Shown here piece by piece: positions 21,801 through 51,352 of a stretch of DNA of 64,000 nt. Both the position numbers and the translations under genes were made by a program. Under the pieces are notes generated by a model. It was not told the DNA's origin. It searched no databases and saw only the letters and a list, made by a program, of their open reading frames with translations. Position 1 is the first letter of the stretch; each line of letters begins with the position of its first letter. The stretch lies in the NCBI GenBank assembly GCA_051294905.1, contig CM119371.1, positions 5,272,001-5,336,000 on the forward strand, written 5' to 3'. This DNA is from Botryllus schlosseri. Taxonomy: Eukaryota.

Positions 21801-22717
21801 CTACTCTCCTGCATGATTGAAAACACATATTAAAGCAAAGGTGCTCAATATACTCATGTAGACGTAACCTCGTAAATTTAAAACAAACAAGTAGTAGGTG
21901 GTCAAGGTAGACGGCGATGCTACTCATGTAAAAGGAACTTCCTAAATATTTAACTAATTACAAGTAGAAGTAACGACACAAATTTATACTCAGTTACAGG
22001 CAAAAGTATTCCCACTTCGAACCAACCGCGGTTGAAGCAAAACTACTCACCTTTGATACATTGAATTTTATAAAGTTTAAAGTAGATTTTACTACTGTTA
22101 TAAGTGACATTGTCACAACAGCTAACCAAAAGTAGTCCGTCTATTATGGGAAACAGAATTTATTTTGGTCAATTGCATCTATTGGTAATGTAATCGGTCA
22201 TTTTGTATTGGTCGTGAACATGAATCTTGCCATTTCTGATGTAGCCAACTACGATCAGTTACTAAAAGTATGCGACGTCTTGAACAATTATACTTTTCAA
22301 AACTACTCGATTTGACTACCTTTCCAACCATCCTTCTTTACTTCTACTTCAAGTGGCTTTGACAAGTCCTGGAAATCACTACTCCCACTAGTGATTTAGT
22401 AGAAATAGTATACATGTATGCAATTGGCAGTAACACTTTGATATTACTTGACAGAAGTAGTCTGTAAAACGTACTTTCATTTTCACAAATAACTAGAGTA
22501 GGTTTTACCTACTTGCACTATTGCTTCGAGTAGATATGACTTTAAACTTCTTCCACTTGACAGTCTCAAGTGTGAAAAGTAAGCAGCCTTGTTTAAAATC
22601 TATTAGTTAGAAGTAATGTATTATAAAATCAGTCCGAATAAGTAACTGTTGTGATCCTGCATCATTAGCATTATATTGCTTTCATTTCCCATCAAATCAC
22701 AAATGTATTCAACCCAC

Positions 22718-22923
22718 CTTGGACAAATGCTCGGACATGTTGTTGTGGAAATACGCGAGCAAGATTACTTTCTTGGTTAGCGTGATCGCGTGTTGTTGAA
22801 GTGTGCAGTGAGATTCTGTCGTATCTCTGTCAATACAATGCAATTGCTCGTCGTTGGTGTACAAAAATATTGGCGTGCTATCTTTATAAAGTACTTTGTT
22901 GTTGTTGTCACATCGTAGGTAAC
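22718..22923 (-). pseudogene. PLK1-like: PLK1-like exon (polo-box 1)
   Basis: GYLRCDNNNKVLYKDSTPIFLYTNDEQLHCIDRDTTESHCTL..TKKVILLAYFHNNMSEHLSK parallels PLK1 [51 protein letters not shown]. It has CAG/GT boundaries. Confidence 0.85.
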
Positions 22924-23823
22924 CTGAAATTGGAATCAAATTTATCAAAATTTTGCAGTTATTTAAACGACTGCCATAGTAAGGAAAATATCAAAATTTT
23001 ATTTGAATCAATGAATATTTTTCAGCTATTTCGAGGCCAGCTATACTAAGGACGATGTTGGGATATTTACAGGCATTCCTGAGCAGCGAAATGTTTTGAT
23101 ATGTATCACATAATTGTATATTACATTATTGAAGTTGTATTCATGTTAGTTGGCAAGAGGTGATGAAAACCATTAGTTAGACAAGCAGAAAATCAGCTTA
23201 TCCAATTTGGATTAGAATTACTGGATTCGCAAAATCTATCGAATCGAATCAAATTCCTAATTGGTAAAAAATGTAACAAAAATAGAGTTTCATTTGCATC
23301 ATCAAATCATTCTCATAAGAATGAAAATGTCAAATGCTTCATCACCAAGCTCGGCTCGTTTTGCGCGATACAACTCTCCTGTAGGCCATTATTAATTCGA
23401 TAAGAATTGAACTGAGAACATGGAAAATTTTTACAAATCAGATTAGAATTAGATTACCGGCGTTAGGCTCTAATTATTCCAATTTGACAATTAAAATTAT
23501 ATAGTTGACCAAGTCTGCGTCAAAAGATAACATTAACGATTTCCAGGATAGCAGTAATTGTCGGGCTGGTCACAAATATTCCACAAATATTCCAGTATCA
23601 ATTGCAACCATTGGAAACGAGTAGTTGGAGCGTATTTTTTATAGTTAACGAAAATATACACGTCCCCTTGTTTTCACAATGATTGTACAATTCAAGTGGG
23701 CCTAATGTTGTTTCTAATTAGTAGAATATACAGCGCTATTTCTACTTCTATTTGAGTAGTCAAGAAGACTACTTTATTCGCTTGCGTATTTATCAAATTA
23801 GATTGTAATCTCATATCAGTACC

Positions 23824-23944
23824 GTTTGCATATCCAGACACAGCGACGATACCAAGATTTCCATATCGATTCCAGCGTCATCCATCAGATCCACTCATTT
23901 GCTGATCCAAAGCACCGGTACAGCAGCTGGCTCTTCTGCCTCAT
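23824..23944 (-). pseudogene. PLK1-like: PLK1-like exon (polo cap and start of PB1) with a nonsense change
   Basis: DEAEEPAAVPVLWISK*VD vs PLK1 EEAEDPACIPIFWVSKWVD; the conserved Trp codon is now TGA. The 3' boundary is uncertain. Confidence 0.75.
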
Positions 23945-24302
23945 CTGTCCAATCAAATATAGCTTTCAAATACAGAAATTGCCCACTAAGTCAGTGCTAA
24001 CAATCATTTTGGTGGAGTGTACCTTTTATTCGAATACAAACAATGTAATGACGGTTCTAGATCACATTACAGAGTATTTGGTATTTTTTATAATCTATCA
24101 TATTCATAGCGCATTGTGATAATGCTGTGGGCTGACAACGATTTCACAGAAATGTCATTTCTACTAATGAGGGTACTGCATAGCTTTGCCCTGCATGTTT
24201 CTTATGCTGCGATACGGCCAATCGAGGTTTACAGCCTACCACAGTGGAAAATATTATTGATCATATAATTTTCATTGATAAATTTGCTGCTAGTGTCGTG
24301 AT

Positions 24303-25790: not shown

Positions 25791-26507
25791 GTCGTGATAC
25801 CTTCATTAAAAACTTACACCAAAAGTTGTCGGAAGCGTTGGGCGTTAATATTACATTCACCATCACCTGTCTTTGTGGAAATGGATTTTCGGCAGTCGTT
25901 GCTATCAAATCGAAGACACGGATTTTCAAGACAATAAATATAGCAGTTAAATTCGCTTCGAAATAATAAAAGTCTACATTTAGTGTGATATTATTTTCAA
26001 GAAAAGTCATTTTGTTGCTGTTTATCGCTAGTCAACAATTAATATTTGCACAAGACAGATGACGGTTGTGCGAGCCGATAGGTGAGCTAAATTTGAACGA
26101 AAACTTGAGGGGGTCCGCGAAGACAAAAAGGTTGAGACCACTGAGGTACAGTGTTAGTGGAAATGACATATATCAAGTCGTGATCAAGCCACGCATTGTC
26201 ACATACCGGAACTAAATAGGTATGGTTGAAAAATAGAAATTATTTAGGGTGGTGTAGAAATGCTGTTATATCATTTGTGGTCGCATATTTGAACTTTCCA
26301 CATTTTTAAAAACGTTATGCCGTCACAAGAGGTGATACTCAGATACTCAACCAGAAGCCGAATAGTAAGATCAGGATGGAATCTGTCAGGTACTCGATTT
26401 AGCCCAGAATTACATTTAAGAACCGTGCGACCTTCTACATTTAAGACCCTTGCGACCACCTTTTTATAAAGATCCCTTATCAATGGTGCTATTGGTGCAT
26501 CAACTCA

Positions 26508-26532
26508 CAAAACACAACCCAGCGACCAGGCG
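26508..26532 (-). pseudogene. PLK1-like: 3' part of the PLK1-like kinase exon split by the palindromic element
   Basis: Reads (A)WSLGCVL followed by a GTGAGT donor (26507-26502), continuing the exon part at 45818-45982. Confidence 0.8.
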
Positions 26533-29500
26533 AGTAGTAAGGGGATCTACTTTTGTTGCAGGCCAATCAAATTTCGCCACGTCGCCCTAATTGCCACGCC
26601 TATATGACGCCCATTGCCGTACCTATAAGACACCCCTTGCCACATCATCCACCCATTGCCGCACCTATAGCACACCCATTGCCACTCATTGTTTTGTGAA
26701 TTTCAATACCGGTTTTCCATGTATATTTAGCAATATGTATTGAATAACTTGAAATGTATCATCACTAATTAATTAATATAAAATGCGATTTTAAGCGCTG
26801 CGACTTGAAAATATTAATATAATAAGTTACTTTTTTGGATATACATAACATTCAGATTACACATAAATTTCGAAAACTATGATGTCAATAGAATACTATA
26901 TTTGCCAGATATTCACAGATAACACTCATCAACGTTGAACTAGGCGCGGGGTTCTATGATGATATATCAAAATTCTACACATCATCACTAATTAATTAAT
27001 TCATATAAAATGCGATTTTGAGCGCAGACAGATCGCGGTTTCGATTGCCGAGGTCTCCGCATTTCATGACCTAATATGAACGCACACTATACAACTGAAT
27101 TCATTCCAATACCTGCAAATTTACTTTGCATGTCGAGTATAAGGATAATTTAATCAGCGCTAAACGCCAACGGACTAGCCGTAGGCGCACAATTCTCGGC
27201 GTTACAATTAAACAAACTTTTCGCGGCAGGTACGCGATTCCTAACGGTTTCTACAGTTTCCACATTTCACGACTTATTTTCTTTGGACGCATACAAGCGA
27301 TTCCCAAGGTCGAGGCTATGGAAACAAATCAAGCATGAGTACGTAAATCTTGAGCTTAGATCTCCGAGATTCTTGTATGCAACTAACATTATAGACAACC
27401 ATTCGACAATATTCAACCAGCAATAATGCTTTCGATATAGTGCATCATGTACAGCGACACGCTGATCAATTCAAATTCAACAATGGGATCCCCCCCGCAC
27501 AATTATGAAGCCCGTTGTTTGCTATAAGCCGGGAAATTAGAGTCGCTGCTTCGCACCATTTTACAGGCAGTCTCAGACACTTTGCTGCATCCGAGCTTCA
27601 TACTAATACATGCATAATTTTTGCATGACGAGAATACGGGTAATACGGTCAATAATTGCCGGAGGCGAGTCATTTAAACCTTGTTGCTAGATAATACCGC
27701 TTTCGGCTACAACAAAGTTGCCCTGCAACAAAAAATAGAAGCCCTAATGATCATGCAGAGGAAAGTTCAATTATACATCGAATTATTCGAATAGACTATC
27801 GACATTGTGTAGGTATGAAGTGAAATAGAACGGAGTTTACGCAAAAGTTGCTATTGATCATAGACCAAGCTTGCTTTCAGAGCTGGAAACTAAATGCATA
27901 TGAAAATTTACCTAGGTTTTCCCCACACGCATCAAATGTAGGCCTACTCAAGTGTTTATGAGGTGGCGAATAGTTCGAAGGTTTTTGGCATGCAAGGGTG
28001 TCACATAGAATTGTGGAGTTTTCTGTAAACTATAATCCAGTGATCGATTTTCAATCACTATATTTTTCATTAATATAAACTAAGTTACTGTTAGTAGGCA
28101 AACCCTAGGAAAGTATCCTCTGATAAAAGCAGGAGTATATTTGTTATCCGTGAAATAAATAGATGGTGCGCAATATGAGCGGTGCTGCGATGACTGACAA
28201 ATACTTTGAATTAATGTATAAAAGTAGCGATTTCGAACTACGTAAAAAGTTAGTCCAGCTCACGCAAGCGACAATTTGCGCGTTCTGAAGCCGTAAATTT
28301 ACTCAACAGCATTGAGATAGCCCTGATTTAAAGAAATTTCATCACACATCTAATGATGGAGCACCTTCAAAACTAACGCAGTCGAATACCGACTTTTACG
28401 CATATCTGTTTTGCATGAACATAGCGTATACCTAAACATAGTCAATTTTAATAACGGAATTACCATGCTAATAATCAAATCCCCAGCCTGAAACTTGGTA
28501 CGCAGTCGTAGGACATTATGAAAATACACCATACCAAACTTCGTCAGACATTTCATGATGTAACACCTTTAAAACTAACGCAGTTCTCTACAGACTTTTG
28601 CGTAAATCTGTTTTTCGGTATGCGATCGATGCATTAATGACTTTAATACTATGTACTTTAAATTATCCACACTTATGAGTCGAAATGTTGTTAAGTAACT
28701 CATGTTTTCAGCATAACCTAAAAGCAAAGTGGACGAATTTCCATGTTGATCAAATACCCCAAACACTGCTTGCTTTCATAGTTAGTAATTAAGCGCATCA
28801 CAGAATTTACCCAAAAAAGTCGGTACTCCGAAAATTTTGTAAAGTAGAGCTTTCGGCGTTGGACTTAAGTTCAAATGAACAAGTGTTCACGTAGGTTCGA
28901 GGTCTGAATGAGTCTTTTAAAGCATATAGAAACGAAAAAACTAATCTAAAAAATTTACGAAGTTTGGATGCGGCATATTTGGCTTTTTTAAAAATTATTT
29001 ATACCCACGATTCGAAATATTGTTAACTAACTTATGTTTTCGACATAAGATAAGCGTGAAGTGTACAAATTTCGATGTTGCGCAAATACCATAAACTTTT
29101 CTTGCTTTCAGAGCTGACAACTAAATGCAACACAGACTTTACGCAAAAAACTTATACTTGAGCACTACGAAATGTACAAGTACTTACCTTTACACGACGT
29201 TTTTTGTAAAATGAATACTAATTTTATTAAAAAATAAAATAGAGCGAAAAACTACATTTTATCCCGGAACGCAACATGAGAAATCGTTTCGATAATATCC
29301 AACATGGTGGTTCACTTCGAGGGTAATTTGATTTAGAAAATATTATACCGACATCGCGGCATCTTTTAAAAACAAAACCATGATCAATGCTTGAGAGACC
29401 ATTTTTGCTATTTTTCATTGACATAAGTCATTCTGGAACGCGAAAACGCATTGTACGATATAGATGAAAATCAAGCAAATCCTAGGATCCTCATTTTCAA

Positions 29501-29659
29501 AGTAGCTTAGATCTCGAAATAAGCTTTGACTCGCTATTCTCCTCAAACCATGGAATTATCACGAGTATCAGCACCTTCGATCACTGAAGAAAAAGATGAA
29601 ATTATATCCGAAGCATATTCCTTGACCAGGAATTTTATCATGTACGAACTCGACGGCTC

Positions 29660-32450
29660 ATGCTAATATGTGACTCCTCACCTTGAAACTTGGTACGTAG
29701 TTGTAGGAATTGTGATTATGCAGCATACCAAATTTCCTCACGCATTTCATAATGGAACAACTTTAAAACTAACGCGGTTCTACATCGACTTTTTGCGTAC
29801 ATCTGTTTTGCGTGGGGGCGTATAGCACGTACCTATACATAGTCAACTTTAACAACGGAATTACCATGCTTAACATTGAATCCCAACTCGAAACTTGATA
29901 CGTAGTTGTAGAACATTATGGCAATGCACCATGCTAAATTTCATCACACATCTAATGATGGAACACCTTTAAAACTAACGCAGTCGAATACCGACTTTTA
30001 CGCATATCTGTTTTGCGTGAACATAGCATATACCTATACATAGTCAATTTTAATAGCAGAATTACCATGTTAAACATTGAATTCCCACCTTGAAAGTTGG
30101 TACGCGGTTATAGGAGATTATAACAATGCACCATACCAAATCCCATCACACATTTCATGATGGAACAACTTTAAAACTAACGCGGCTCTACATCGACTTT
30201 TTGCGTACATCTGTTTTGCGGGAGCGTATAGCACGTAGCCTACCCATACATAGCCAACTTTAATAACGGAATTACCATGCTTAACATTGAATCCCAACTC
30301 GAAACTTGATACGTAGTTATAGGACATTATGGCAATTCACCATGCTAAATTTCATCACACATCTAATGATGGAACACCTTTGAAACTATCGCAGTCGAAT
30401 ACCAACTTTTACGCATATCTGTTTTTCGTGAACATAGCATATACCCATACATAGTCAATTTTAATAACAGAATTAGCATGCTAAACATTAAATTCTCACC
30501 TTGAACGTTGATACGCGGTTATAGGACATAATAACAATGCACCATACCAAATTTCGTCAGACATTTCATGATGTAATACCTTTAAAACCAACGCAGTTCT
30601 ATACAGACTTTTGGCTAAATCTGTTTTTCCGTAGCGTAGCACGTACCTATACATAGTAAACTTTAATAACGGATTTAGCATGTTAATAATCGACTTAGTT
30701 TAAATAAAATACGGAATATAAACTAATCGAAAAATTCGGTAACCAATTTCGCGTAGGCTATGCATGCATACAAATGAGGAAAGTTACATCAACGCGTGTT
30801 AAAGTAGCTTTATCGAGTTATCGAATGATTTTTCCTTACATCAAAACAACTAGAATGTAGAACTAAATTAAAAAACGTATCTAAATGAGCTCCAGGGCAT
30901 TGTGATTATGCTGCATACCAAATTTCATCACACATTTCATGATGGAACAACTTTAAAACTAACGCAGTTCTATAGCAACTTTTGCCTAAATCTCTTTTCG
31001 GTAGCGTGTACATATACATAGTCAGATTTAATAACAGAATTATCATGCTAATATGTGACTCCTCACCTTGAAACTTGGTACGTAGTTGTAGGACATTGTG
31101 ATTATGCAGCATACTAAATTTCTTCACGCATTTCATAATGGAACAACTTTAAAACTAACGCGGTTCTACATCGACTTTTTGCGTTCATCTGTTTTGCGTG
31201 GTGGCGTATAGCACGTACCTATACATAGTCAACTTTAACAACGGAATTACCATGCTTAACATTGAATCCCAACTCGAAACTTGATACGTAGTTGTAGGAC
31301 ATTATGGCAATGCACCATGCTAAATTTCATCACACATCTAATAATGGAACACCTTTAAAACTAACGCAGTCGAATACCGACTTTTACGCATATCTGTTTT
31401 GCGTGAACATAGCATATACCTATACATAGTCAATTTTAATAGCAGAATTACCATGTTAAACATTGAATTCCCACCTTGAAAGTTGGTACGCGGTTATAGG
31501 AGATTATAAAATGCACCATACCAAATCCCATCACACATTTCATGATGGAACAACTTTAAAACTAACGCGGCTCTACATCGACTTTTTGCGTACATCTGTT
31601 TTGCGGGAGCGTATAGCACGTAGCCTACCCATACATAACCAAATTTAATAACGGAATTACCATGCTTAACATTGAATCCCAACTCGAAACTTGATACGTA
31701 GTTATAGGACATTATGGCAATTCACCATGCTAAATTTCATCACACATCTAATGATGGAACACCTTTGAAACTATCGCAGTCGAATACCAACTTTTACGCA
31801 TATCTGTTTTTCGTGAACATAGCATATACCCATACATAGTCAATTTTAATAACAGAATTAGCATGCTAAACATTAAATTCTCACCTTGAACGTTGATACG
31901 CGGTTGTAGGACATAATAACAATGCACCATTCCAAATTTCGTCAGACATTTCATGATGTAACACCTTTAAAACCAACGCAGTTCTATACAGACTTTTGGC
32001 TAAATCTGTTTTTCCGTAGCGTAGCACGTACCTATACATAGTCAACTTTAATAACGGATTTAGCATGTTAATAATCGACTCCCCACCTTGAAACTCGGTA
32101 CGCAGTTGTAAGACATTATGAAAATGCACCATGTCAAATTTTGTTACGCATTTCTTGATTGAACAACTTTAAAACTAACGCAGTTCCATACCGACTTTTG
32201 CGAGTGCGTAGCACGTACCTATATGCATACTCAACTTTCATAACGGAATTACCGAGCTAAACATTGAATGCGCAACTTGAAGATTGGTTCACAGGTGTAG
32301 GGCAGTATGACAATGGAACACATCAAATTTCATCACACATTTCATGATGGAACACCTTTAAAACTAACGCAGTTCTATACCAACCTCGCGTGAATCTGTT
32401 TGCGGGAGCGCAGCACGTACCTATGCGTGATCAACTTTAGTGTTGGAATT
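29660..32450. repeat. Degenerate ~200-209-bp tandem repeat array in the left arm (13 units, plus 2 more at ~28335-28620)
   Basis: An AAAACTAACGC-like anchor recurs at 29765, 29971, 30173, 30382, 30584, 30955, 31151, 31357, 31558, 31767, 31969, 32171 and 32360. Confidence 0.9.
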
Positions 32451-32624
32451 ACATATGTAATTAAGTTTCAACACTTTTACAATGTTTCGTCTTGCTTCCT
32501 ATAACATCCCACTCGAGAAAATGCGTCGTAGGATATAGATGAAACTAGCACCACTCATCAAGACCGCTGAAAACAGTACATTTCAACATTTAGTAGCAGT
32601 AAATTTCTAGTAAAGTACAAGACA

Positions 32625-33389
32625 ATACTGCCAACGGTCGTTCAGATAGGATTCTTGCGATTTCGCACGAGAATCTATAAGCCACTTCCAGTTAGATGTT
32701 TCAAATGCAGCCGATTCGGTCACCGGGCAAAACACTGTAGAAGTACACAACGATGCACTAAATGTGGTGGTAGACATGAGTACTCGGCATGTCAGAATGC
32801 ACCCCGCTGCGTAAACTGCGGTGAAGCACACTCGGCGGGCTACACAGGATGCAGACGCTACAGACATGAGGTACAAGTCAATGCCATTATGGCGAACGAA
32901 AAGGTTAATTATTGGGAGGCGAATAAAATGATACAGACGCGAACGGCCACAGTAAACATACACTCTCCACAGGAATTTCCTCCATTGCCTAGCAATAACC
33001 TCCCACATTATGCGGATCAAACGATACTTCCAGCTGCGGCACTCGCAACATGCATGCGACCGGCTCCTGCTTCGCAAGAGCCAGTTGCCACAATACAATC
33101 CGACACGATAACTATATCAAAAACTAGCTTCTTCAAATTCATCGCAGATGTTATGAAGAATACTTTACTAGATTTCAATCAAGGTAAACAACTCGACATA
33201 GAGGCAATAGTCGCTAAATCAGCAGAAGGGATTTTCGGATTCCCCACTTCAGAATTGACTAGGTTTCCCACCACACAATCGCAACCCGATGGCGTGTTGG
33301 ATCTTACGAAAGCGACGCACCACGATTCTCTTCCACCTCACAATATAGTCGACGAACATTCTCCGGGAAATAAATCACCGCCTTCATGA
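32625..33389 (+). CDS. LINE ORF1 (gag-like), N-terminally truncated
   Basis: Open from the insertion junction (ILPTVVQIGFLRFRTRIYKPLPVR), followed by three CCHC knuckles: CFKCSRFGHRAKHC, CTKCGGRHEYSAC and CVNCGEAHSAGYTGC. Confidence 0.88.
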   Translation: MLPTVVQIGFLRFRTRIYKPLPVRCFKCSRFGHRAKHCRSTQRCTKCGGRHEYSACQNAPRCVNCGEAHSAGYTGCRRYRHEVQVNAIMANEKVNYWEANKMIQTRTATVNIHSPQEFPPLPSNNLPHYADQTILPAAALATCMRPAPASQEPVATIQSDTITISKTSFFKFIADVMKNTLLDFNQGKQLDIEAIVAKSAEGIFGFPTSELTRFPTTQSQPDGVLDLTKATHHDSLPPHNIVDEHSPGNKSPPS

Positions 33390-36300
33390 TACCTTTATCC
33401 ATTTTTCAATGGAACTGTCGTGGTATATATCACAAGCTACACGAATTGAAACACTTATTGACAAACTCGGCTGTGAAACCCGACATTATAGCCATCCAAG
33501 AATCTCACCTAGTATCCAAATACGTGCCTGTTATACATGGCTATTCCCTCGTAAGAAAAGATAGAGACGTTAATGGTGGAGGTGTGTGCTTCTTCATCAG
33601 CAATATGATTAAATTCGTTGAAATTCCTCTCCACGGTTACTCGCCAATTGAAGTGTTAGCAATAGAGGTAGAAGGGACACGCATATACAACGTTTACGTA
33701 CCCCCAGGAAGAGCTATATCACGAGATTTATTCTACCGTATCTTCGCCCAACACAGTAATAAATGCATTTATCTAGGTGATTTCAACGCTCATCATCCGA
33801 TGTTTAAGAGCATTCGCACAAATTCTTACGGTCGTCACCTCAACGCGGCGATGGATCGTTTTGATTTGGTTGCGCTGAACACAGACGTGCCAACCCGAGT
33901 GAACTTTTCCCTTAACGCGACGCAACGGCACAGCATACTTGACCTGACGCTGGCCACTCCCGACATTGCCCACCGAATTTCTACTACGGTCACAGACAGC
34001 CTGCTGGGCAGCGATCATTATATCATTATTAATGAAATCGACACAACTACCGACCGGACCCCTGAATGTCATGTTGAATCGTGGGCTCTGAAACGTGCCA
34101 ACTGGCAAAAATTCGCCGTTCTGTGCAACCAAGAACTTGAAGGATCTGCCCAGAACTCGCTGACGGTGGAAGATTTCACCAGAATACTCATCTCCACAGC
34201 CGCAATCTGTATCCCGACAACAAAGCCCCGTAAGAAGCCCATGATGCCGTGGTGGAACGATGCCTGCTCGCGGGCAATCAGGTTGAAGAAAGCTGCCTTC
34301 AAAAAAATGAAGCTCACATTCCGGGAAGACGCAATAATCTTATTTAAAAGGCGCAGGGCAGAGGCCAGAAAAACAATATTGGAGACTAAGAAAACATTTT
34401 GGCGGTCATTTTGCAACTCCCTTGATAAAAATTGCAAATTATCCAAAGTATGGAGAATAGCCAAATCTATGAATGGTTACAAAACTTGGAGCCATATCAG
34501 CGTGTTGTCGCACAACGGAGCTACGGTTAAAGGAGACATAAATATCGCAAACACCCTAGCAAAACAATTTCGCTCTGTTAGCAGCGATGAAAACTACGAT
34601 CCGACATTTCGAAACCAACGCCTCTCGATTGAGAAATCCTTCCGCGACAACGAAGCAACGGCTGCAGTGCAAAGTAGCTTGTCACCGGTCGATATCAATT
34701 CAGAATTCACAATGGTCGAACTGAAGAATGTTCTCAAAACACGAAAAAGCACAGCCCCTGGTGTCGACAGAGTATGTCAGCAAATGCTTGCAAACCTGCC
34801 TGAAGATTGCTTATCCGTACTGATCGGCATCATAAACGAATCGTGGAGAACCGGCAAATGCCCACAATCTTGGAAGCACGCTATCGTTGTACCAATTCCC
34901 AAGCCTGGTAAACCGAAAGAATCCGTTTCCTCGTACAGGCCCATTTCCCTCACGAGCAATTTATGTAAGAGTGTCGAACGAATGATCAATTACAGATTGA
35001 AATGGTGGCTTGATAGCAAAAAATTACTCCATCCCGCGCTCAGCGGGTTTCGAAGTAGACGTTCAGCAAAAGATTGTATCATGAGTCTACATGACGATGT
35101 CTACAAGTCCATATGGAACCAGCGATCAACAATAGCTGTGTTCATAGACTTAGAGAAAGCGTATGACATGGTTTGGATAAATGGACTAATCCACAAGCTA
35201 CACGGTCAGGGTTTGCGAGGAAACATACTAGACTGGTTGAGGTCGTTCTTATCGGATAGAAAATTTCAGGTTCGCGTGGGGTCTTCTTATTCGGACATAT
35301 TTCCGCTAGAAAACGGTCTTCCTCAGGGCAGCGTTTTAAGCCCGATCATGTACAACCTCATGATGAACGATCTGCCTGATCAAATTGAATCAAGCATCAA
35401 TATATTCGCAGATGATATATGTTTGTGGGAGACTGGTCTCAATATCGAACACATTGCCACTTCACTCCAGGCGTCATTGGAGAAGTTGTCAGATTGGTGT
35501 AAAAAATGGGGATTTCGAATAAATGCAAATAAATGCTCCTCTATGATATTCACCAAAAAACGTAAATTACCAGATGTCCGACTGAAAATAGATGGGATAA
35601 CCGTGCCTATCAGTAATGAATTTAAATATCTCGGGGTCGTATTCGATAAACGATTATCCTATAAAGCGCACACCAATGTAGTTGCAGCGAAATGCGTTGC
35701 GCGATTGAATTTGCTACGTTTCCTAAGTGGCACCACTTGGGGAGCGTCCAAGGAATGTTTAATGACGATTTATAGAGTACTTATACGGTCAGTGATCGAG
35801 TATGGCTTTGAGGCATATATGTTTAGCCCAAAATACAATTCAAACCGTATCCAGTGGATACAAAACGCCGCCTTGAGAATTTGTTGCGGGGCAATGAAAA
35901 GCACCCCGATTTGTACACTCCAACATACAACGAATGAATTGCCGATTCACATTCGCCACCGCAGAGCTTGCTTAATATACAAGTGCTACGTCCGATCTCA
36001 CCCAACGCATCCATGTCGGCCACTATGCGAGAACTCTTGGCACGAAATTTTCCCAGATTCGATCAAGTTTACCACTTTTAATATGTACACTCAAATATCA
36101 AGCATAAGGGGACTTGACATTGCGGTTCCCAGCCCAATTTCCCTTCCACCATGGATTGACCTACCGGTAAAAGTTGATACATGTCTTCGAAGTTTGGCTT
36201 ATCACCACCCTAACTCACCGTTCGGACGTGAGTGTCAAGACTACGTAGAAACCAACTATGACTTATATTTACAAATATATACTGATGGCTCCAAAATGGA

Positions 36301-37126
36301 CAGCGGATGTGGTAGTAGTTTTCATGTCAATCTTTTGAACATCTCCTCGAAATTTCGAATCCCCAAAACAAGATCTATATTTACAGCAGAGTTGTTTGCG
36401 ATCTACAAAGCTCTGGAATGGGTTTCCGGACAATGCGAGCCGCCAAGTCATAATAGTATAGCCATTCTTTCGGATAGTCTAAGCGCTTTGGACGCGATAC
36501 AGCACCGTTCCTCGACTCATCATTTAATTTCCAAAATATTCGATGTATGCTTAGATCTCTTAAAAAGAGAAATTATTATTGCTTTTATATGGATTCCAGG
36601 TCACGAAGGCGTCGGTTTCAATCACGTCGCAGACACCCTCGCAAAGGAGGCCGCCGGGGGCGAAGCAGGAGTCAACGACGAAGAAAGTCTGAAAATAACA
36701 CTATCGGAATGCAAGACTATCATAAACGAGCAATCCGAAAGGTGGTGGACCTCCGAGTTCAATGCGGCAGAGACTGGTTTGCACTATCGACGCTTCACTG
36801 AAGACAAAGAAACCACAAAGGAAATGAATAAGCTGGATAAACAATATAGTACAACGCTATTTAGACTCCAGACAGGCCATTGCAAACTCAACGGACACCT
36901 GTACCGTATTGGGTGCCATGATGATGGACTATGTGAAATTTGTTACTCGGAGGAATCGGTCGAACACTTCTTGATCCAGTGCAGCAGATACGACGACCAC
37001 CGAACTTCACTTAAAAGAGCCGCCGAACAATTAGGCATATGTTTTGTACTGGACAATTTATTATCTGACCCCAGAATGCTTATAAAAGTAGTGGAATTTG
37101 TAAATGCCACCGGGCGAGTCATCTGA
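33386..37126 (+). CDS. LINE ORF2: APE endonuclease, reverse transcriptase, RNase H and C-terminal zinc knuckle (1246 aa, uninterrupted)
   Basis: APE motifs QWNCRG, IQESH, GDFNAH, SDH. RT motifs YRPISLTS, PQGSVLSP, FADD, YLGV. RNase H motifs YTDGSK, AELFAI, SDSLSAL, WIPGH..N..AD.LAK. C-terminal CEIC..ESVEHFLIQC. Confidence 0.96.
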   Translation: MIPLSIFQWNCRGIYHKLHELKHLLTNSAVKPDIIAIQESHLVSKYVPVIHGYSLVRKDRDVNGGGVCFFISNMIKFVEIPLHGYSPIEVLAIEVEGTRIYNVYVPPGRAISRDLFYRIFAQHSNKCIYLGDFNAHHPMFKSIRTNSYGRHLNAAMDRFDLVALNTDVPTRVNFSLNATQRHSILDLTLATPDIAHRISTTVTDSLLGSDHYIIINEIDTTTDRTPECHVESWALKRANWQKFAVLCNQELEGSAQNSLTVEDFTRILISTAAICIPTTKPRKKPMMPWWNDACSRAIRLKKAAFKKMKLTFREDAIILFKRRRAEARKTILETKKTFWRSFCNSLDKNCKLSKVWRIAKSMNGYKTWSHISVLSHNGATVKGDINIANTLAKQFRSVSSDENYDPTFRNQRLSIEKSFRDNEATAAVQSSLSPVDINSEFTMVELKNVLKTRKSTAPGVDRVCQQMLANLPEDCLSVLIGIINESWRTGKCPQSWKHAIVVPIPKPGKPKESVSSYRPISLTSNLCKSVERMINYRLKWWLDSKKLLHPALSGFRSRRSAKDCIMSLHDDVYKSIWNQRSTIAVFIDLEKAYDMVWINGLIHKLHGQGLRGNILDWLRSFLSDRKFQVRVGSSYSDIFPLENGLPQGSVLSPIMYNLMMNDLPDQIESSINIFADDICLWETGLNIEHIATSLQASLEKLSDWCKKWGFRINANKCSSMIFTKKRKLPDVRLKIDGITVPISNEFKYLGVVFDKRLSYKAHTNVVAAKCVARLNLLRFLSGTTWGASKECLMTIYRVLIRSVIEYGFEAYMFSPKYNSNRIQWIQNAALRICCGAMKSTPICTLQHTTNELPIHIRHRRACLIYKCYVRSHPTHPCRPLCENSWHEIFPDSIKFTTFNMYTQISSIRGLDIAVPSPISLPPWIDLPVKVDTCLRSLAYHHPNSPFGRECQDYVETNYDLYLQIYTDGSKMDSGCGSSFHVNLLNISSKFRIPKTRSIFTAELFAIYKALEWVSGQCEPPSHNSIAILSDSLSALDAIQHRSSTHHLISKIFDVCLDLLKREIIIAFIWIPGHEGVGFNHVADTLAKEAAGGEAGVNDEESLKITLSECKTIINEQSERWWTSEFNAAETGLHYRRFTEDKETTKEMNKLDKQYSTTLFRLQTGHCKLNGHLYRIGCHDDGLCEICYSEESVEHFLIQCSRYDDHRTSLKRAAEQLGICFVLDNLLSDPRMLIKVVEFVNATGRVI

Positions 37127-39901
37127 TTGCTTGACAATGTGGACTTTATTATGGGCCCTTGAGTCATGGTGCGAAATGACTTCGTAGTCGGTGCACCAAT
37201 TTTCCCTTATTCAACCAACCAACCAAGACCGCTGAAAACAGTACATTTCAACATTAAGTAGCAGTAAATTTCTAGTAAAGTACAAGACGTGATGATTTCC
37301 GAGTGAGCTAAAAAGTAAGTATTGCAGGTATAGTTTACCTGAAAACCGAATACTCTGAAATAGAAGTAGATGCAGTGTAAATAGTTGATCACTTGATTAA
37401 GTTTAGTGCAAGCAGATAAAACCTATACTTGAGTAGTACAAAATGCACGAGTACTTCGCTATCGCCTCCCTCCACGTAATAAGTGTCTACGGTTTAAGAC
37501 TGCTTTTACCGATACTCGTCCGTTTCAGTTTTAGATAGAATTCGGAAACCAAATAATTTTCATAAACATAAGCTAATTTAATGAATTTACTCGAATGCAC
37601 TATGCTGCGCTGATAAGATTAATTATAATATAATTATCATGTTACAGCGATTTTTCTAGCGTAGAAAATCTTTAAAATGTAGTAAGCAGGCCAAATGAAG
37701 ATATTCGTTGAGCTGAATAAACATAAAAATACTCTAGACTACTTTATCGGTACTTTACAGTTACAGTTTTAGATAAAATTTGTCCCTTTCACCTATAATT
37801 ACAACTCCTCGCTATCTAAACATGTTTAGAATATATTATTTGCGATGATACGAACCCGTGAAGTACTCAAGTTGCTTTTCGTAGGATATAGATGAAACTG
37901 ACAACACTCACCAAGACCAGTGATCCACTGAAAAAAGTACATTGTAGCAGTAAAGTCCTACTAAAGTACAAGAAGTAATGATTTCCCAGTTAGTTAAAAA
38001 GTAAGTATTGAGGTATAGTTTGGTCGAAAAAGCGAAAAACTCTGAAATAGAAGTAGATGCAGTGTAAATAGGTAATCACTTCATTAAGTATAGCGCAAGC
38101 AGGCCAAACCCATACTTAAGTACTGCAAATGTACAAGTACTTCGCTATGTTCTCCCTCCACGTAAAAAGTGACTAGGTTTTAGAGTACTTTATCGGTACT
38201 CGACAGTTTCAGTGTTAGATAAAATTTGGTAAGACTTTAAATTTTAAAGTAGTTTGAGCTTACGTTTGTATCACCTTGACAAGTAACATTATCAGACATG
38301 AAAATGATACTATCACCGAATATAGAAGTTAACACGCGTCAATGTGCTTCGGAATGCACGAGAAATTGCTTACTAAGAGAAGTATATTGTTGTATACACA
38401 ATAGTGGAGAGAATATTTAAAATGTAGTAAGCAGGCCGATGGGTATTCGTTTAGTTGTATAGGCATAAAAAACATTCCCGCGCGCGCGTCTTAGTATTAG
38501 GTGGTAGGGTTAGGAAGTGCTTTGTTTAAGAGCGCGCGGGAATGTTTTTCATGTCTATACAACTAAACGAATACCCATCGGCCTGCTTACTACATTTTAA
38601 ATATTCTCTCCACTATTGTGTATACAACAATATACTTCTCTTAGTAAGCAATTTCTCGTGCATTCCGAAGCACATTGACGCGTGTTAACTTCTATATTCG
38701 GTGATAGTATCATTTTCATGTCTGATAATGTTACTTGTCAAGGTGATACAAACGTAAGCTCAATCTACTTTAAAATTTAAAGTCTTACCAAATTTTATCT
38801 AACACTGAAACTGTCGAGTACCGATAAAGTACTCTAAAACCTAGTCACTTTTTACGTGGAGGGAGAACATAGCGAAGTACTTGTACATTTGCAGTACTTA
38901 AGTATAGGTTTGGCCTGCTTGCGCTATACTTAATGAAGTGATTACCTATTTACACTGCATCTACTTCTATTTCAGAGTTTTTCGCTTTTTCGACCAAACT
39001 ATACCTCAATACTTACTTTTTAACTAACTGGGAAATCATTACTTCTTGTACTTTAGTAGGACTTTACTGCTACAATGTACTTTTTTCAGTGGATCACTGG
39101 TCTTGGTGAGTGTTGTCAGTTTCATCTATATCCTACGAAAAGCAACTTGAGTACTTCACGGGTTCGTATCATCGCAAATAATATATTCTAAACATGTTTA
39201 GATAGCGAGGAGTTGTAATTATAGGTGAAAGGGACAAATTTTATCTAAAACTATAACTGTAAAGTACCGATAAAGTAGTCTAGAGTATTTTTATGTTTAT
39301 TCAGCTCAACGAATATCTTCATTTGGCCTGCTTACTACATTTTAAAGATTTTCTACGCTAGAAAAATCGCTGTAACATGATAATTATATTATAATTAATC
39401 TTATCAGCGCAGCATAGTGCATTCGAGTAAATTCATTAAATTAGCTTATGTTTATGAAAATTATTTGGTTTCCGAATTCTATCTAAAACTGAAACGGACG
39501 AGTATCGGTAAAAGCAGTCTTAAACCGTAGACACTTATTACGTGGAGGGAGGCGATAGCGAAGTACTCGTGCATTTTGTACTACTCAAGTATAGGTTTTA
39601 TCTGCTTGCACTAAACTTAATCAAGTGATCAACTATTTACACTGCATCTACTTCTATTTCAGAGTATTCGGTTTTCAGGTAAACTATACCTGCAATACTT
39701 ACTTTTTAGCTCACTCGGAAATCATCACGTCTTGTACTTTACTAGAAATTTACTGCTACTAAATGTTGAAATATACTGTTTTCAGCGGTCTTGATGAGTG
39801 GTGCTAGTTTCATCTATATCCTACGACGCATTTTCTCGAGTGGGATGTTATAGGAAGCAAGACGAAACATTGTAAAAGTGTTGAAACTTAATTACATATG
39901 T

Positions 39902-42692
39902 AATTCCATCACTAAAGTTGATCACGCATAGGTACGTGCTGCGCTCCCGCAAACAGATTCACGCGAGGTTGGTATAGAACTGCGTTAGTTTTAAAGGTGT
40001 TCCATCATGAAATGTGTGATGAAATTTGATGTGTTCCATTGTCATACTGCCCTACACCTGTGAACCAATCTTCAAGTTGCGCATTCAATGTTTAGCTCGG
40101 TAATTCCGTTATGAAAGTTGAGTATGCATATAGGTACGTGCTACGCACTCGCAAAAGTCGGTATGGAACTGCGTTAGTTTTAAAGTTGTTCAATCAAGAA
40201 ATGCGTAACAAAATTTGACATGGTGCATTGTCATAATGTCTTACAACTGCGTACCGAGTTTCAAGGTGGGGAGTCGATTATTAACATGCTAAATCCGTTA
40301 TTAAAGTTGACTATGTATAGGTACGTGCTACGCTACGGAAAAACAGATTTAGCCAAAAGTCTGTATAGAACTGCGTTGGTTTTAAAGGTGTTACATCATG
40401 AAATGTCTGACGAAATTTGGAATGGTGCATTGTTATTATGTCCTACAACCGCGTATCAACGTTCAAGGTGAGAATTTAATGTTTAGCATGCTAATTCTGT
40501 TATTAAAATTGACTATGTATGGGTATATGCTATGTTCACGAAAAACAGATATGCGTAAAAGTTGGTATTCGACTGCGATAGTTTCAAAGGTGTTCCATCA
40601 TTAGATGTGTGATGAAATTTAGCATGGTGAATTGCCATAATGTCCTATAACTACGTATCAAGTTTCGAGTTGGGATTCAATGTTAAGCATGGTAATTCCG
40701 TTATTAAATTTGGTTATGTATGGGTAGGCTACGTGCTATACGCTCCCGCAAAACAGATGTACGCAAAAAGTCGATGTAGAGCCGCGTTAGTTTTAAAGTT
40801 GTTCCATCATGAAATGTGTGATGGGATTTGGTATGGTGCATTTTATAATCTCCTATAACCGCGTACCAACTTTCAAGGTGGGAATTCAATGTTTAACATG
40901 GTAATTCTGCTATTAAAATTGACTATGTATAGGTATATGCTATGTTCACGCAAAACAGATATGCGTAAAAGTCGGTATTCGACTGCGTTAGTTTTAAAGG
41001 TGTTCCATTATTAGATGTGTGATGAAATTTAGCATGGTGCATTGCCATAATGTCCTACAACTACGTATCAAGTTTCGAGTTGGGATTCAATGTTAAGCAT
41101 GGTAATTCCGTTGTTAAAGTTGACTATGTATAGGTACGTGCTATACGCCACCACGCAAAACAGATGAACGCAAAAAGTCGATGTAGAACCGCGTTAGTTT
41201 TAAAGTTGTTCCATTATGAAATGCGTGAAGAAATTTGGTATGCGGCATAATCACAATGTCCTACAACTACGTACCAAGTTTCAAGGTGAGGAGTCACATA
41301 TTAGCATGATAATTCTGTTATTAAATCTGACTATGTATATGTACACGCTACCGAAAACAGATTTAGGCAAAAGTTGCTATAGAACTGCGTTAGTTTTAAA
41401 GTTGTTCCATCATGAAATGTGTGATGAAATTTGGTATGCAGCATAATCACAATGCCCTGGAGCTCATTTAGATACGTTTTTTAATTTAGTTCTACATTCT
41501 AGTTGTTTTGATGTAAGGAAAAATCATTCGATAACTCGATACAGCTACTTTAACACGCGTTGATGTAACTTTCCTCATTTGTATGCATGCATAGCCTACG
41601 CGAAATTGGTTACCGAATTTTTCGATTAGTTTATATTCCGTATTTTATTTAAACCAAGTCGATTATTAACATGCTAAATCCGTTATTAAAGTTTACTATG
41701 TATAGGTACGTGCTACGCTACGGAAAAACAGATTTAGCCAAAAGTCTGTATAGAACTGCGTTGGTTTTAAAGGTATTACATCATGAAATGTCTGACGAAA
41801 TTTGGTATGGTGCATTGTTATTATGTCCTATAACCGCGTATCAACGTTCAAGGTGAGAATTTAATGTTTAGCATGCTAATTCTGTTATTAAAATTGACTA
41901 TGTATGGGTATATGCTATGTTCACGAAAAACAGATATGCGTAAAAGTTGGTATTCGACTGCGATAGTTTCAAAGGTGTTCCATCATTAGATGTGTGATGA
42001 AATTTAGCATGGTGAATTGCCATAATGTCCTATAACTACGTATCAAGTTTCGAGTTGGGATTCAATGTTAAGCATGGTAATTCCGTTATTAAAGTTGGCT
42101 ATGTATGGGTAGGCTACGTGCTATACGCTCCCGCAAAACAGATGTACGCAAAAAGTCGATGTAGAGCCGCGTTAGTTTTAAAGTTGTTCCATCATGAAAT
42201 GTGTGATGGGATTTGGTATGGTGCATTGTTATAATCTCCTATAACCGCGTACCAACTTTCAAGGTGGGAATTCAATGTTTAACATGGTAATTCTGCTATT
42301 AAAATTGACTATGTATAGGTATATGCTATGTTCACGCAAAACAGATACGCGTAAAAGTCGGTATTCGACTGCGTTAGTTTTAAAGGTGTTCCATCATTAG
42401 ATGTGTGATGAAATTTAGCATGGTGCATTGCCATAATGTTCTACAACTACGTATCAAGTTTCGAGTTGGGATTCAATGTTAAGCATGGTAATTCCGTTGT
42501 TAAAGTTGACTATGTATAGGTACGTGCTATACGCCCCCACGCAAAACAGATGTACGCAAAAAGTCGATGTAGAACCGCGTTAGTTTTAAAGTTGTTCCAT
42601 TATGAAATGCGTGAGGAAATTTGGTATGCTGCATAATCACAATTCCTACAACTACGTACCAAGTTTCAAGGTGAGGAGTCACATATTAGCAT
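39902..42692. repeat. Mirror copy of the ~200-209-bp tandem array in the right arm
   Basis: Reverse complement of 29660-32450. Confidence 0.9.
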
Positions 42693-45600
42693 GAGCCGTC
42701 GAGTTCGTACATGATAAAATTCCTGGTCAAGGAATATGCTTCGGATATAATTTCATCTTTTTCTTCAGTGATCGAAGGTGCTGATACTCGTGATAATTCC
42801 ATGGTTTGAGGAGAATAGCGAGTCAAAGCTTATTTCGAGATCTAAGCTACTTTGAAAATGAGGATCCTAGGATTTGCTTGATTTTCATCTATATCGTACA
42901 ATGCGTTTTCGCGTTCCAGAATGACTTATGTCAATGAAAAATAGCAAAAATGGTCTCTCAAGCATTGATCATGGTTTTGTTTTTAAAAGATGCCGCGATG
43001 TCGGTATAATATTTTCTAAATCAAATTACCCTCGAAGTGAACCACCATGTTGGATATCATCGAAACGATTTCTCATGTTGCGTTCCGGGATAAAATGTAG
43101 TTTTTCGCTCTATTTTATTTTTTAATAAAATTAGTATTCATTTTACAAAAAACGTCGTGTAAAGGTAAGTACTTGTACATTTCGTAGTGCTCAAGTATAA
43201 GTTTTTTGCGTAAAGTCTGTGTTGCATTTAGTTGTCAGCTCTGAAAGCAAGAAAAGTTTATGGTATTTGCGCAACATCAAAATTTGTACACTTCACGCTT
43301 ATCTTATGTCGAAAACATAAGTTAGTTAACAATATTTCGAATCGTGGGTATAAATAATTTTTAAAAAAGCCAAATATGCCGCATCCAAACTTCGTAAATT
43401 TTTTAGATTAGTTTTTTCGTTTCTATATGCTTTAAAAGACTCATTCAGACCTCGAACCTACGTGAACACTTGTTCATTTGAACTTAAGTCCAACGCCGAA
43501 AGCTCTACTTTACAAAATTTTCGGAGTACCGACTTTTTTGGGTAAATTCTGTGATGCGCTTAATTACTAACTATGAAAGCAAGCAGTGTTTGGGGTATTT
43601 GATCAACATGGAAATTCGTCCACTTTGCTTTTAGGTTATGCTGAAAACATGAGTTACTTAACAACATTTCGACTCATAAGTGTGGATAATTTAAAGTACA
43701 TAGTATTAAAGTCATTAATGCATCGATCGCATACCGAAAAACAGATTTACGCAAAAGTCTGTAGAGAACTGCGTTAGTTTTAAAGGTGTTACATCATGAA
43801 ATGTCTGACGAAGTTTGGTATGGTGTATTTTCATAATGTCCTACGACTGCGTACCAAGTTTCAGGCTGGGGATTTGATTATTAGCATGGTAATTCCGTTA
43901 TTAAAATTGACTATGTTTAGGTATACGCTATGTTCATGCAAAACAGATATGCGTAAAAGTCGGTATTCGACTGCGTTAGTTTTGAAGGTGCTCCATCATT
44001 AGATGTGTGATGAAATTTCTTTAAATCAGGGCTATCTCAATGCTGTTGAGTAAATTTACGGCTTCAGAACGCGCAAATTGTCGCTTGCGTGAGCTGGACT
44101 AACTTTTTACGTAGTTCGAAATCGCTACTTTTATACATTAATTCAAAGTATTTGTCAGTCATCGCAGCACCGCTCATATTGCGCACCATCTATTTATTTC
44201 ACGGATAACAAATATACTCCTGCTTTTATCAGAGGATACTTTCCTAGGGTTTGCCTACTAACAGTAACTTAGTTTATATTAATGAAAAATATAGTGATTG
44301 AAAATCGATCACTGGATTATAGTTTACAGAAAACTCCACAATTCTATGTGACACCCTTGCATGCCAAAAACCTTCGAACTATTCGCCACCTCATAAACAC
44401 TTGAGTAGGCCTACATTTGATGCGCCTGGGGAAAACCTAGGTAAATTTTCATATGCATTTAGTTTCCAGCTCTGAAAGCAAGCTTGGTCTATGATCAATA
44501 GCAACTTTTGCGTAAACTCCGTTCTATTTCACTTCATACCTACACAATGTCGATAGTCTATTCGAATAATTCGATGAATAATTGAACTTTCCTCTGCATG
44601 ATCATTAGGGCTTCTATTTTTTGTTGCAGGGCAACTTTGTTGTAGCCGAAAGCGGTATTATCTAGCAACAAGGTTTAAATGACTCGCCTCCGGCAATTAT
44701 TGACCGTATTACCCGTATTCTCGTCATGCAAAAATTATGCATGTATTAGTATGAAGCTCGGATGCAGCAAAGTGTCTGAGACTGCCTGTAAAATGGTGCG
44801 AAGCAGCGACTCTAATTTCCCGGCTTATAGCAAACAACGGGCTTCATAATTGTGCGGGGGGGATCCCATTGTTGAATTTGAATTGATCAGCGTGTCGCTG
44901 TACATGATGCACTATATCGAAAGCATTATTGCTGGTTGAATATTGTCGAATGGTTGTCTATAATGTTAGTTGCATACAAGAATCTCGGAGATCTAAGCTC
45001 AAGATTTACGTACTCATGCTTGATTTGTTTCCATAGCCTCAACCTTGGGAATCGCTTGTATGCGTCCAAAGAAAATAAGTCGTGAAATGTGGAAACTGTA
45101 GAAACCGTTAGGAATCGCGTACCTGCCGCGAAAAGTTTGTTTAATTGTAACGCCGAGAATTGTGCGCCTACGGCTAGTCCGTTGGCGTTTAGCGCTGATT
45201 AAATTATCCTTATACTCGACATGCAAAGTAAATTTGCAGGTATTGGAATGAATTCAGTTGTAGTGTGCTTTCATATTAGGTCATGAAATGCGGAGACCTC
45301 GGCAATCGAAACCGCGATCTGTCTGCGCTCAAAATCGCATTTTATATGAATTAATTAATTAGTGATGATGTGTAGAATTTTGATATATCATCATAGAACC
45401 CCGCGCCTAGTTCAACGTTGATGAGTGTTATCTGTGAATATCTGGCAAATATAGTATTCTATTGACATCATAGTTTTCGAAATTTATGTGTAATCTGAAT
45501 GTTATGTATATCCAAAAAAGTAACTTATTATATTAATATTTTCAAGTCGCAGCGCTTAAAATCGCATTTTATATTAATTAATTAGTGATGATACATTTCA

Positions 45601-45817
45601 AGTTATTCAATACATATTGCTAAATATACATGGAAAACCGGTATTGAAATTCACAAAACAATGAGTGGCAATGGGTGTGCTATAGGTGCGGCAATGGGTG
45701 GATGATGTGGCAAGGGGTGTCTTATAGGTACGGCAATGGGCGTCATATAGGCGTGGCAATTAGGGCGACGTGGCGAAATTTGATTGGCCTGCAACAAAAG
45801 TAGATCCCCTTACTACT

Positions 45818-45982
45818 CAGGCGTCCGCTTCGAAACTGTGTTCATTCTTGCCGAGAACTTCCGGGTCATTAATAGTCGGGGCTGCCGCAAAGAGTATTCG
45901 TTGTGTGGCTGTCGCAGACGACCTTGGTAGCTTGACCAAAATCTTCAAACTTCACCTCATTATTGTTTGGGAAGTCTGTCAG
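45818..45982 (-). pseudogene. PLK1-like: PLK1-like kinase exon (subdomains VII-IX), 5' part, frameshifted
   Basis: NNEVKFEDFGQATKVVCDSHTTNTLCGSPDY(*/fs)PEVLGKNEHSFEADA vs PLK1 [47 protein letters not shown]. Confidence 0.85.
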
Positions 45983-46329
45983 CTGTCAATCAAAATTTCA
46001 CATTCAAGTTACATAAGTACATAAAGTTGTACAAACTACCCATCCAGTTGAATGATGGCGAACTACAGTAACTGCTGCTTTTTTTGAGTAGTTCTAGTTC
46101 AAGTTGTGCATTTCAATAAAAAGGTAGTTGCCGAACAACTAGAAAATGCGTGTCATCTTGATGATGGTGTTCTGTTGTGTGATGATCTTGCAGACATTGG
46201 TAACTCAGAGTCATCACTACCAAAAGACAGTGATATAAGCAGTGGTGGCTTTTGGGGTGGGCGAGGTGGGCGGTCGCCCAGGGCCCCCCCTGGTTGATTT
46301 ACGCGCTTTCGAGGGGCCCCCCTCCTCGG

Positions 46330-49640: not shown

Positions 49641-49787
49641 TTCTTTTGCACAACTCGAGAACGATGTAGACAAAATCCTGTTCTTGGAAGAATCTGTAAA
49701 ATCCAACGACGTGCTTGTGATTCAAACTGCGGTGGAGATGATCTCTTGAGATATATTGTCTTTCTGGTGATCATACGCGAGCAATGC
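49641..49787 (-). pseudogene. PLK1-like: PLK1-like kinase exon (subdomains III-V), copy 1, frameshifted
   Basis: [16 protein letters not shown](fs)[31 protein letters not shown] vs PLK1 [49 protein letters not shown]. Confidence 0.85.
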
Positions 49788-51352
49788 CTAAAATTCAGAC
49801 ACGGGGTACTAGTGATAGTTGCGGATTATGAAAAGTGAGTAGTTCTAGTTCTATTCATGCATTTAAAAAACTTAAGTTGCCGATCAACTAGAAAACGAAT
49901 GTCGTCATTTGGTGTGAGTCATGATACCGGTGTTCTTGCAGCCAGCTCAGAGTCATCACTGCTAAAAAAGAAGTACCACCGGGTGGTTTTATAATTGAAA
50001 TGCCGATTCTATCTCCAATATTCATTAGCTCATATAAAATTAAGTATTCCGTATAATGAGTTGAGCCTATTAGTTAGTTAATTAGGGATGTTTACTACGC
50101 TTTCACCCGGACTTGAGAAGAATTGAGTTGCTAAAACTAATCGAAAATGGTCATTCTACTTCAGCAGTTCCGTATGCGTCCCTATGCGGAATGTGTTTAG
50201 AACTAGGCCTAGAGATGAATTGTGTAATCATAAGATAATACTACTTCATGAATGTCAGTAGGTGGTTTATTATAATAAGGTATAATGACAGCCTGAACGA
50301 TGATTGTTTGGCTAATAATATCGGGTCTATAATAGAGTTTGAACTATATCGGCCATGAGAGGCAAAAATATCGGCAATTTTTGTGACGACATGGTAGTAT
50401 GGAAAATATTATTTGCGATTGACATTGGAAATATTCATCTATTTCTCGTAACTTACAAGTGGTCACGTTGGTACTCTAGTATAGAACTAGAAGTGACATT
50501 GTAATTGTCTACTCGAGCATATGCAGAAGTTGCGATTTCAAAGTAGGTACGGTAATAGAGCAAGTATTCTAGACCTGGTTTAGCCGAAAAACTGAACTGT
50601 TACATAGGAGCGTACAGATGCATCCTTTCTCGTATATTTCATTTCAAAGTCTAGCAACGACCACAACGTTTTTTAAATCAATGTTCTGAAGGTTTGAAAA
50701 TGTGCCTTACGCTAATTGCCATATTGTTTCAATATAGGCCAAATATAGCGAGGTTTTCAGTGAAAGTGCTACTTATCGGTATTGGCTCAAAACTACGATA
50801 TCTGTCGGAGTCTAGCTAGGATGAATGAGACTCGAGTACGCGACTAGAATCGTAATACTCGATTCAGCTTTTCCAAATTAGATTACGATTGGAATCACTG
50901 CTGCTATTTTTTATAGTTTTATTTTACCCATATTAGAGTAGAATTAGAATTAAAGCTACACAGCTTTTTCCGATTTAGAATATTACAATGATAGCTACAC
51001 GTTTTTTTTACGAATTGGCTAAACAGTTTTTCTCCAAATCAGAGTAAAATGATAGCTACACACATTTTTCAAAATTAGATTAGAATTAGAATTACTTAAT
51101 TTACAAAACCTTCGACATCGAATGAAGCTCAGTTCATATCAAATCACAGCTCATACACATAAGCACTATAATGACAAATGTCAGCACAGCGAGCCTGGTT
51201 GGTTTCGTACGATACAGTACTCCTGCAGCAATTACAGGAAAGCCAGAAATTAGATTAATGTGAACATAGAATGATTTGACAATTTAGATTATAATTAGAT
51301 GACAGGCATTCGCTTGATTAGTTTTATTAGACAACTACATTACAATTATTAC

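Follow-up and report, generated by a model that had tools for sequence, protein, structure and literature searches.

A PLK1 exon remnant in Botryllus schlosseri is interrupted by a 14.6-kb palindromic insertion with Maverick/Polinton-type ends

Non-autonomous Polintons carry Polinton ends without mobility genes, depend on a helper and bear Repbase names such as Polinton-1N1. For vertebrate Mavericks, PMC8097293 gives (AGT)2//(ACT)2 as the commonest end motif, a target-site duplication (TSD) of 6 bp, and a size of 12.7-24.6 kb for intact copies, with terminal inverted repeats (TIRs) of 46-1,447 bp; similar general features of Maverick/Polinton elements are found in PMC10748475 and PMC3014272. 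Ginger transposons have TGT ends and a 4-5-bp TSD (PMC2836005). Snapback defective genomes of adeno-associated virus (AAV), in which one genome end is copied back on itself, are self-complementary and helper-dependent (PMC8235507). In the open-access listings and passages searched, we found no description of wholly palindromic Maverick satellites, and the passages of PMC6431247, PMC11296320, PMC5499653 and 10.1101/2024.01.15.575659 mention no palindromic Polinton; Repbase and the 2006 Polinton paper may cover non-autonomous Polintons with long TIRs. Here we describe a 64,000-nucleotide stretch of the Botryllus schlosseri genome (assembly GCA_051294905.1, contig CM119371.1, positions 5,272,001 to 5,336,000, forward strand; hereafter the window), in which a near-perfect palindrome with Maverick/Polinton-type ends lies within an exon remnant of the Polo-like kinase gene PLK1.

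The element spans 26533-45817, a length of 19,285 bp that falls to 14,620 bp once a nested long interspersed nuclear element (LINE) is discounted. It starts with AGTAGT and finishes with ACTACT, and both ends are abutted by a 6-bp direct repeat, CAGGCG, which on direct reading of the sequence cannot be extended on either side (P about 3e-4 for a 6-bp direct repeat by chance). The symmetry of the palindrome stops at the element ends, the flanks matching mirror-wise at only 23 of 100 bases, and elsewhere in the window no sequence matches the element arm. The features that make up the insertion site are as follows.

26508..26532, minus strand: 3' part of the PLK1 pseudo-exon, to residue 212, including one TSD copy and with a GTGAGT donor-like end
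26527..26532, plus strand: left TSD copy, CAGGCG, from sequence reading
26533..45817, unstranded: whole element with AGTAGT...ACTACT ends
45818..45823, plus strand: right TSD copy, CAGGCG, from sequence reading
45824..45985, minus strand: 5' part of the PLK1 pseudo-exon, residues about 156-203, with a +1 frameshift near 45870

We excised 26533-45823 (the element and one CAGGCG copy) in silico and ran tblastn with two named insect PLK1/polo proteins, P0002 and P0003, which were two of the three candidates from a homolog search. It can be seen that both proteins aligned without gaps through the junction, P0002 to residue 212 (E 3e-6) and P0003 to residue 211 (E 7e-6); in the filled site, the frame meets a stop immediately past the junction. 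When 61 junction registers (-30 to +30 bases) were scanned, offset 0, at which one CAGGCG is kept, scored best against P0002 and P0003 (81 and 79, respectively), compared with 61 and 59 for the runner-up and 40 and 38 for the filled site, and at this offset 13 of 23 residues were identical to P0002. As a chance control, seven codons scoring equally were sought over 127,970 window positions on both strands and were found at one, the true left flank. Read on the minus strand, this flank runs to the GTGAGT donor-like site, and the similarity to PLK1 ends there. Since the register with one TSD copy is the best and the chance control returned the true flank alone, we conclude that no target bases were lost, that exactly six were duplicated, and that the structure is a true insertion and not a local fold-back or an assembly artefact.

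An initial annotation of this DNA had quoted the flank sequences and coordinates, including the minus-strand left flank leading into GTGAGT, and these were correct. The contiguous alignment to PLK that it expected after removal of 26533-45823 was obtained with the insect proteins, the 6-bp TSD that it named is present on both sides in the register that agrees with exon continuity, and this continuity across one TSD copy is exact, as its statement that the target lost nothing implies. The TSD, together with flanks that are collinear and not mirrored, also supports the clean integration it had proposed over a local inverted duplication or breakage-fusion-bridge product. Two of its statements were too strong. 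The element ends and TSD are indeed both fixed, but by complementary and not wholly independent lines of evidence, because the protein match gives the net inserted length, while the direct repeat and the arm symmetry pick which six bases are the TSD. Likewise, excision restores the reading frame in the sense of local contiguity over about 22 codons, but the exon is still +1 frameshifted, a lesion that the annotation mentioned in its text and passed over in its title, which is therefore slightly overstated.

With the LINE discounted, the palindrome is 14.6 kb long and consists of two 7.3-kb arms, 0.3% different, on either side of a 33-nt loop. Its components are listed here.

26533..32623, plus strand: outer section of the left arm, which differs from 39729-45817 by 16 mismatches and one 2-bp indel
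29658..32439, plus strand: left-arm tandem array of about 202-bp units that includes an internal duplication of 1,039 bp; its mirror counterpart lies at about 39900-42694
32559..32623, plus strand: first copy of a 65-bp direct repeat (arm sequence duplicated around the LINE)
32624..37223, plus strand: nested LINE, a 5'-truncated non-long-terminal-repeat retrotransposon
37224..37288, plus strand: second copy of the 65-bp direct repeat, 1 mismatch relative to the first
37289..38492, plus strand: left arm, inner part, up to the centre
38493..38525, unstranded: central unpaired loop, 33 nt
38526..45817, minus strand: right arm, 7,292 bp, uninterrupted

The arms differ from one another at 22 places over 7,291 bp, with 1-5 differences in each kilobase bin. 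We considered a greater age for the inner arms than for the outer ones and rejected it, as 5 mismatches in about 1,200 bp compare with 17 differences in 6,091 bp. Within an arm, the 1,039-bp internal duplicates are separated by 12-13 mismatches and 2 gaps; between mirror arms the corresponding figure is 1-2. The central loop contains a telomere-like, G-rich stretch with TTAGG and TAGGG words; where the stem ends, a run of GC dinucleotides adjoins it.

All open reading frames (ORFs) of more than 100 codons in the element lie within the nested LINE, which contains the end of a zinc-knuckle ORF1, an open 1,250-codon ORF2 frame at 33374-37126 (endonuclease, reverse transcriptase and RNase H) and a short CAAC-repeat tail. 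These domains and the tail suggest an RNase H-bearing LINE, possibly of the I group. The 65-bp duplication around it is unusually long and has CAAGAC both at its start and at its end, which points to microhomology at either end of the LINE. When the left arm and centre were searched against Pfam in 18 read-through frames, with X at stops, no family scored above the cut-off, and two matches below it (E 0.01-0.02) were unrelated to Maverick genes; Rfam gave no match over 26000-46500.

Of 24 sequencing runs listed, 21 hold parts of 42800-50300, and we compared four of these, each in the form of contigs: X1, which had the best coverage and is possibly the source sample, two runs from other studies under the same organism label, and X17, which carries another label. 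In all four, the arm had a depth, summed over contigs and not a copy number, whose median over 12 bins was 44- to 232-fold above that of the PLK1-exon bin. The element arm is therefore a repeat. Among the 40 of 327 variant rows listed were 16 arm positions at which the X1 majority differs from the window; the window letter occurs in both arms at 14 of them, and at the other two the left arm has the majority letter. The two arms resemble each other more than they resemble most other copies, because they share these 14 variants and because the 1,039-bp duplicates differ less between mirror arms than within an arm. We also observed that 0.24-0.28 of the words of 42800-50300 occur in each of X5, X6, X17 and X18, runs under four other organism labels; these may be relatives, mixed samples or differences in labelling. 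Runs sharing few words with this stretch, namely metagenomes and organism D, were left out of the comparison. X17 covers both the element arm and the neighbouring hAT-like repeat described below.

The exon that was hit is one of eight clear PLK1 exon remnants, along with one weak one, on the minus strand of the window. Two exons are present twice and the order is scrambled. The seven remaining clear remnants are:

21660..21803, minus strand: polo-box exon remnant, residues about 509-555, open frame
22709..22924, minus strand: polo-box exon remnant, residues about 397-467, open frame
23856..23951, minus strand: exon remnant, residues about 369-400, in-frame stop
49642..49764, minus strand: exon remnant, residues about 64-106, frameshifted, without a GT donor
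51350..51494, minus strand: exon remnant, residues about 107-149, frameshift and stop
54046..54210, minus strand: exon remnant, residues about 107-150, in-frame stop
55234..55359, minus strand: exon remnant, residues about 65-106

PLK1 was the top match among PDB structures both for the 38 codons at 45872-45985 (E 4e-4) and for the piece at 49630-49755 (E 8e-11). The hit exon has seven bases instead of six between its CGSPDY and PE motifs, giving a +1 frameshift, and there are two stops in the upstream frame, so that the stop or frameshift ascribed to this exon by the initial annotation is real. Stops or frameshifts occur in five of the eight main remnants, whereas both polo-box pieces retain open frames; a number of splice signals are preserved, and two exon borders coincide with borders that can be seen in P0001, an unspliced gene call. 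Only 284 bp separate the hit exon from the upstream exon after a 3,364-bp hAT-like insertion is discounted, and no HRD (catalytic-loop) exon is found there; nor do PLK1 residues of about 213-368 have a match in the stretch that separates the hit exon from the polo-box exons. At 13 of 23 residues shared with insect PLK1, the hit exon is diverged by comparison with two insects, which share 19 of 22, and with the element arms, which differ by 0.3%. We infer, as the initial annotation had done, that this PLK1 copy was likely dead before the insertion, and the lesions in five of eight remnants, the scrambled order and the absent exons support this well. The target is one of several scrambled PLK1 exon remnants, not a single interrupted gene. 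As these remnants are scrambled and make up 1,319 of the 44,709 host bases in the window (about 3%), the hit is no sign of targeting or of a knockout.

The DNA around the remnants contains several other features. The hAT-like element (46240-49603) is 3,364 bp long and non-autonomous, has a 10-bp TIR starting CAGTGGTGGC and is bracketed by a perfect direct repeat of 8 bp, GATATAAG; it contains a 154-bp tandem array, its depth in contigs is high and its left flanks there vary, and we presume it to be a member of the hAT superfamily. We rejected the possibility that the exon at 49642-49764 was carried inside this transposon, which stops at 49603. A repeat of about 140 bp at about 70% identity (46085-46225, 49836-49967 and 55421-55560) lies just upstream of three different PLK1 remnants and has high depth in other runs. 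The PLK1 debris is flanked by two open tandem arrays of 84-bp units, which read as C2H2 zinc fingers on the minus strand (1449-2714, 421 codons; 62427-63536, 369 codons), and a small fold-back at 58371-58951 has 270-bp arms that are 83% complementary and 41 bp apart.

We consider it probable that the locus holds a palindromic element with Maverick/Polinton-type ends that was integrated, with the aid of a helper, into an exon of a likely dead PLK1 copy, and that later received a LINE in one arm. The element is best read as a helper-dependent, snap-back-like Maverick/Polinton satellite with a putative helper. Both of its ends would present the same terminal origin and integrase substrate, on which the protein-primed polymerase and integrase of a helper Maverick would act in trans. 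The arms may have been made, or re-made, as mutual copies during replication of the element, by fold-back or panhandle copying; this is suggested by the variants that they share with each other and not with most other copies, and by differences that are even along their length. As the LINE is present in one arm only, it would have arrived after the last arm copying, probably at the present site, and the target would have been struck by chance among the PLK1 debris. The more specific proposal, on which our judgement is evenly divided, is that the element is the integrated snap-back satellite of an animal polintovirus, with a capsid-sized, self-complementary genome of 14.6 kb in which one end region was copied back and whose arms were re-synchronised at each helper-driven replication.

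Several observations weigh against this view of the element. Its arms are five times as long as the longest TIR of intact vertebrate Mavericks (1,447 bp in PMC8097293), and the 18 frames contain no remnant of a Maverick gene, so that the link to Mavericks is carried by the six-base motif and the TSD length. The terminal 18-mer had no match in viral contigs and a terminal 20-mer none in metagenome contigs, although the host is probably absent from these and the result is thus uninformative on a helper. The depth of the arm does not give a number of element copies, and the variants shared by the arms are also explained by gene conversion after insertion or by a small young subfamily. Finally, neither an empty allele nor a second junction was seen in the contigs of the four runs, for which the right junction was examined and 24 of 1,955 loose ends were listed. 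Two contigs near this junction are undecisive on the point: one from run X16 covers 45840-46072 with 1 difference and ends 17 bases before the TSD, and one from X1 covers 45848-45985 with 10 differences and is possibly from a paralog.

An alternative that accepts a Maverick-ended insertion would have the palindrome arise, or be maintained, in the chromosome once the element had integrated, through loss of a coding core by deletion and gene conversion between the arms. Shared private variants would also be produced by conversion of inverted repeats that lie close together, and a single locus cannot time them. However, the arm differences are evenly spread almost up to the loop, the closest lying only a few bases away, and do not lie in tracts, the LINE and its 65-bp duplication have not been converted into the other arm, and arm sequence is high-copy across all 3 kb tested; we regard this account as unlikely. 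We are slightly more doubtful that the element is a foldback-type non-autonomous DNA transposon, moved by the cut-and-paste transposase of another superfamily and with Maverick-like ends by coincidence. This would sit comfortably with the lack of any Maverick coding remnant, and long arms with internal tandem arrays would resemble those of foldback elements, but it leaves the exact (AGT)2//(ACT)2 motif combined with a 6-bp TSD to chance. In the P and MuDR groups, the TSDs of foldback elements measure 7-9 bp. Among other superfamilies, Ginger is excluded, since TGT ends and TSDs of 4-5 bp (PMC2836005) are unlike AGTAGT...ACTACT and 6 bp.

Two further explanations concern the site more than the element. 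A near-perfect hairpin is the shape that a local inverted duplication, a breakage-fusion-bridge event or a long-read fold-back assembly artefact would produce. Such an origin is nevertheless extremely improbable given that the flanks are collinear halves of one exon and not mirror images, as the junction test shows, that a direct 6-bp repeat is present, that the arm sequence does not come from the surrounding host DNA and behaves as a repeat in other runs, and that 22 differences and a 4.7-kb LINE distinguish one arm from the other. The open frames of two polo-box remnants and the intact splice signals could be taken to mean that the insertion knocked out a working PLK1 paralog, with the remaining lesions acquired later. 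This we find very hard to credit, as arms that are 0.3% different and a perfect TSD stand against a hit exon with a frameshift and identity at 13 of 23 residues (19 of 22 for the insect pair), and the neighbouring exons contain stops and are out of order.

When a giant palindrome turns up in an assembly, the usual suspicion is an artefact or a scar of rearrangement. At this locus a coding exon serves as a base-pair ruler, by which the 14.6-kb palindrome can be seen to have arrived as a discrete, integrase-type insertion, and the PLK1 target, as incidental pseudogene debris, has no biological weight beyond this use. The locus lends support to a class of Maverick satellites that are fully palindromic and gene-less and that appear to be undescribed in the open-access literature searched. 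If the element is indeed a snap-back satellite, the interrupted exon would prove that hairpin-shaped molecules are real integrase substrates, and the mirrored variants in each copy would be a fossil record of Maverick replication, a process so far not directly observed.

Set beside known systems, the target resembles ordinary unprocessed (duplicated) pseudogene fragments. PLK1 is the best match for the kinase pieces, polo-box pieces are present, and the exon remnants are bounded by introns and carry stops and frameshifts; nothing about them is unusual, and here the exons are repeated and out of order. The element itself resembles non-autonomous Polintons in its ends and its lack of mobility genes. 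With Maverick/Polinton elements at large it shares the (AGT)2//(ACT)2 ends, the 6-bp TSD and, at 14.6 kb, a size within the range of intact elements in PMC8097293. Unlike them, it has no polymerase, integrase, ATPase, protease or capsid gene recognisable by Pfam in the 18 frames, and its arms extend for 7.3 kb to a 33-nt loop, whereas Maverick TIRs (roughly 50-1,500 bp) surround a unique core. We therefore rejected an autonomous Maverick, with which the end motif and TSD agree and the gene content and TIR size do not. The snapback genomes of AAV, self-complementary and helper-dependent (PMC8235507), offer a structural analogy only: AAV is a single-stranded, hairpin-primed parvovirus, whereas the element is 14.6 kb long and chromosomally integrated with a TSD.

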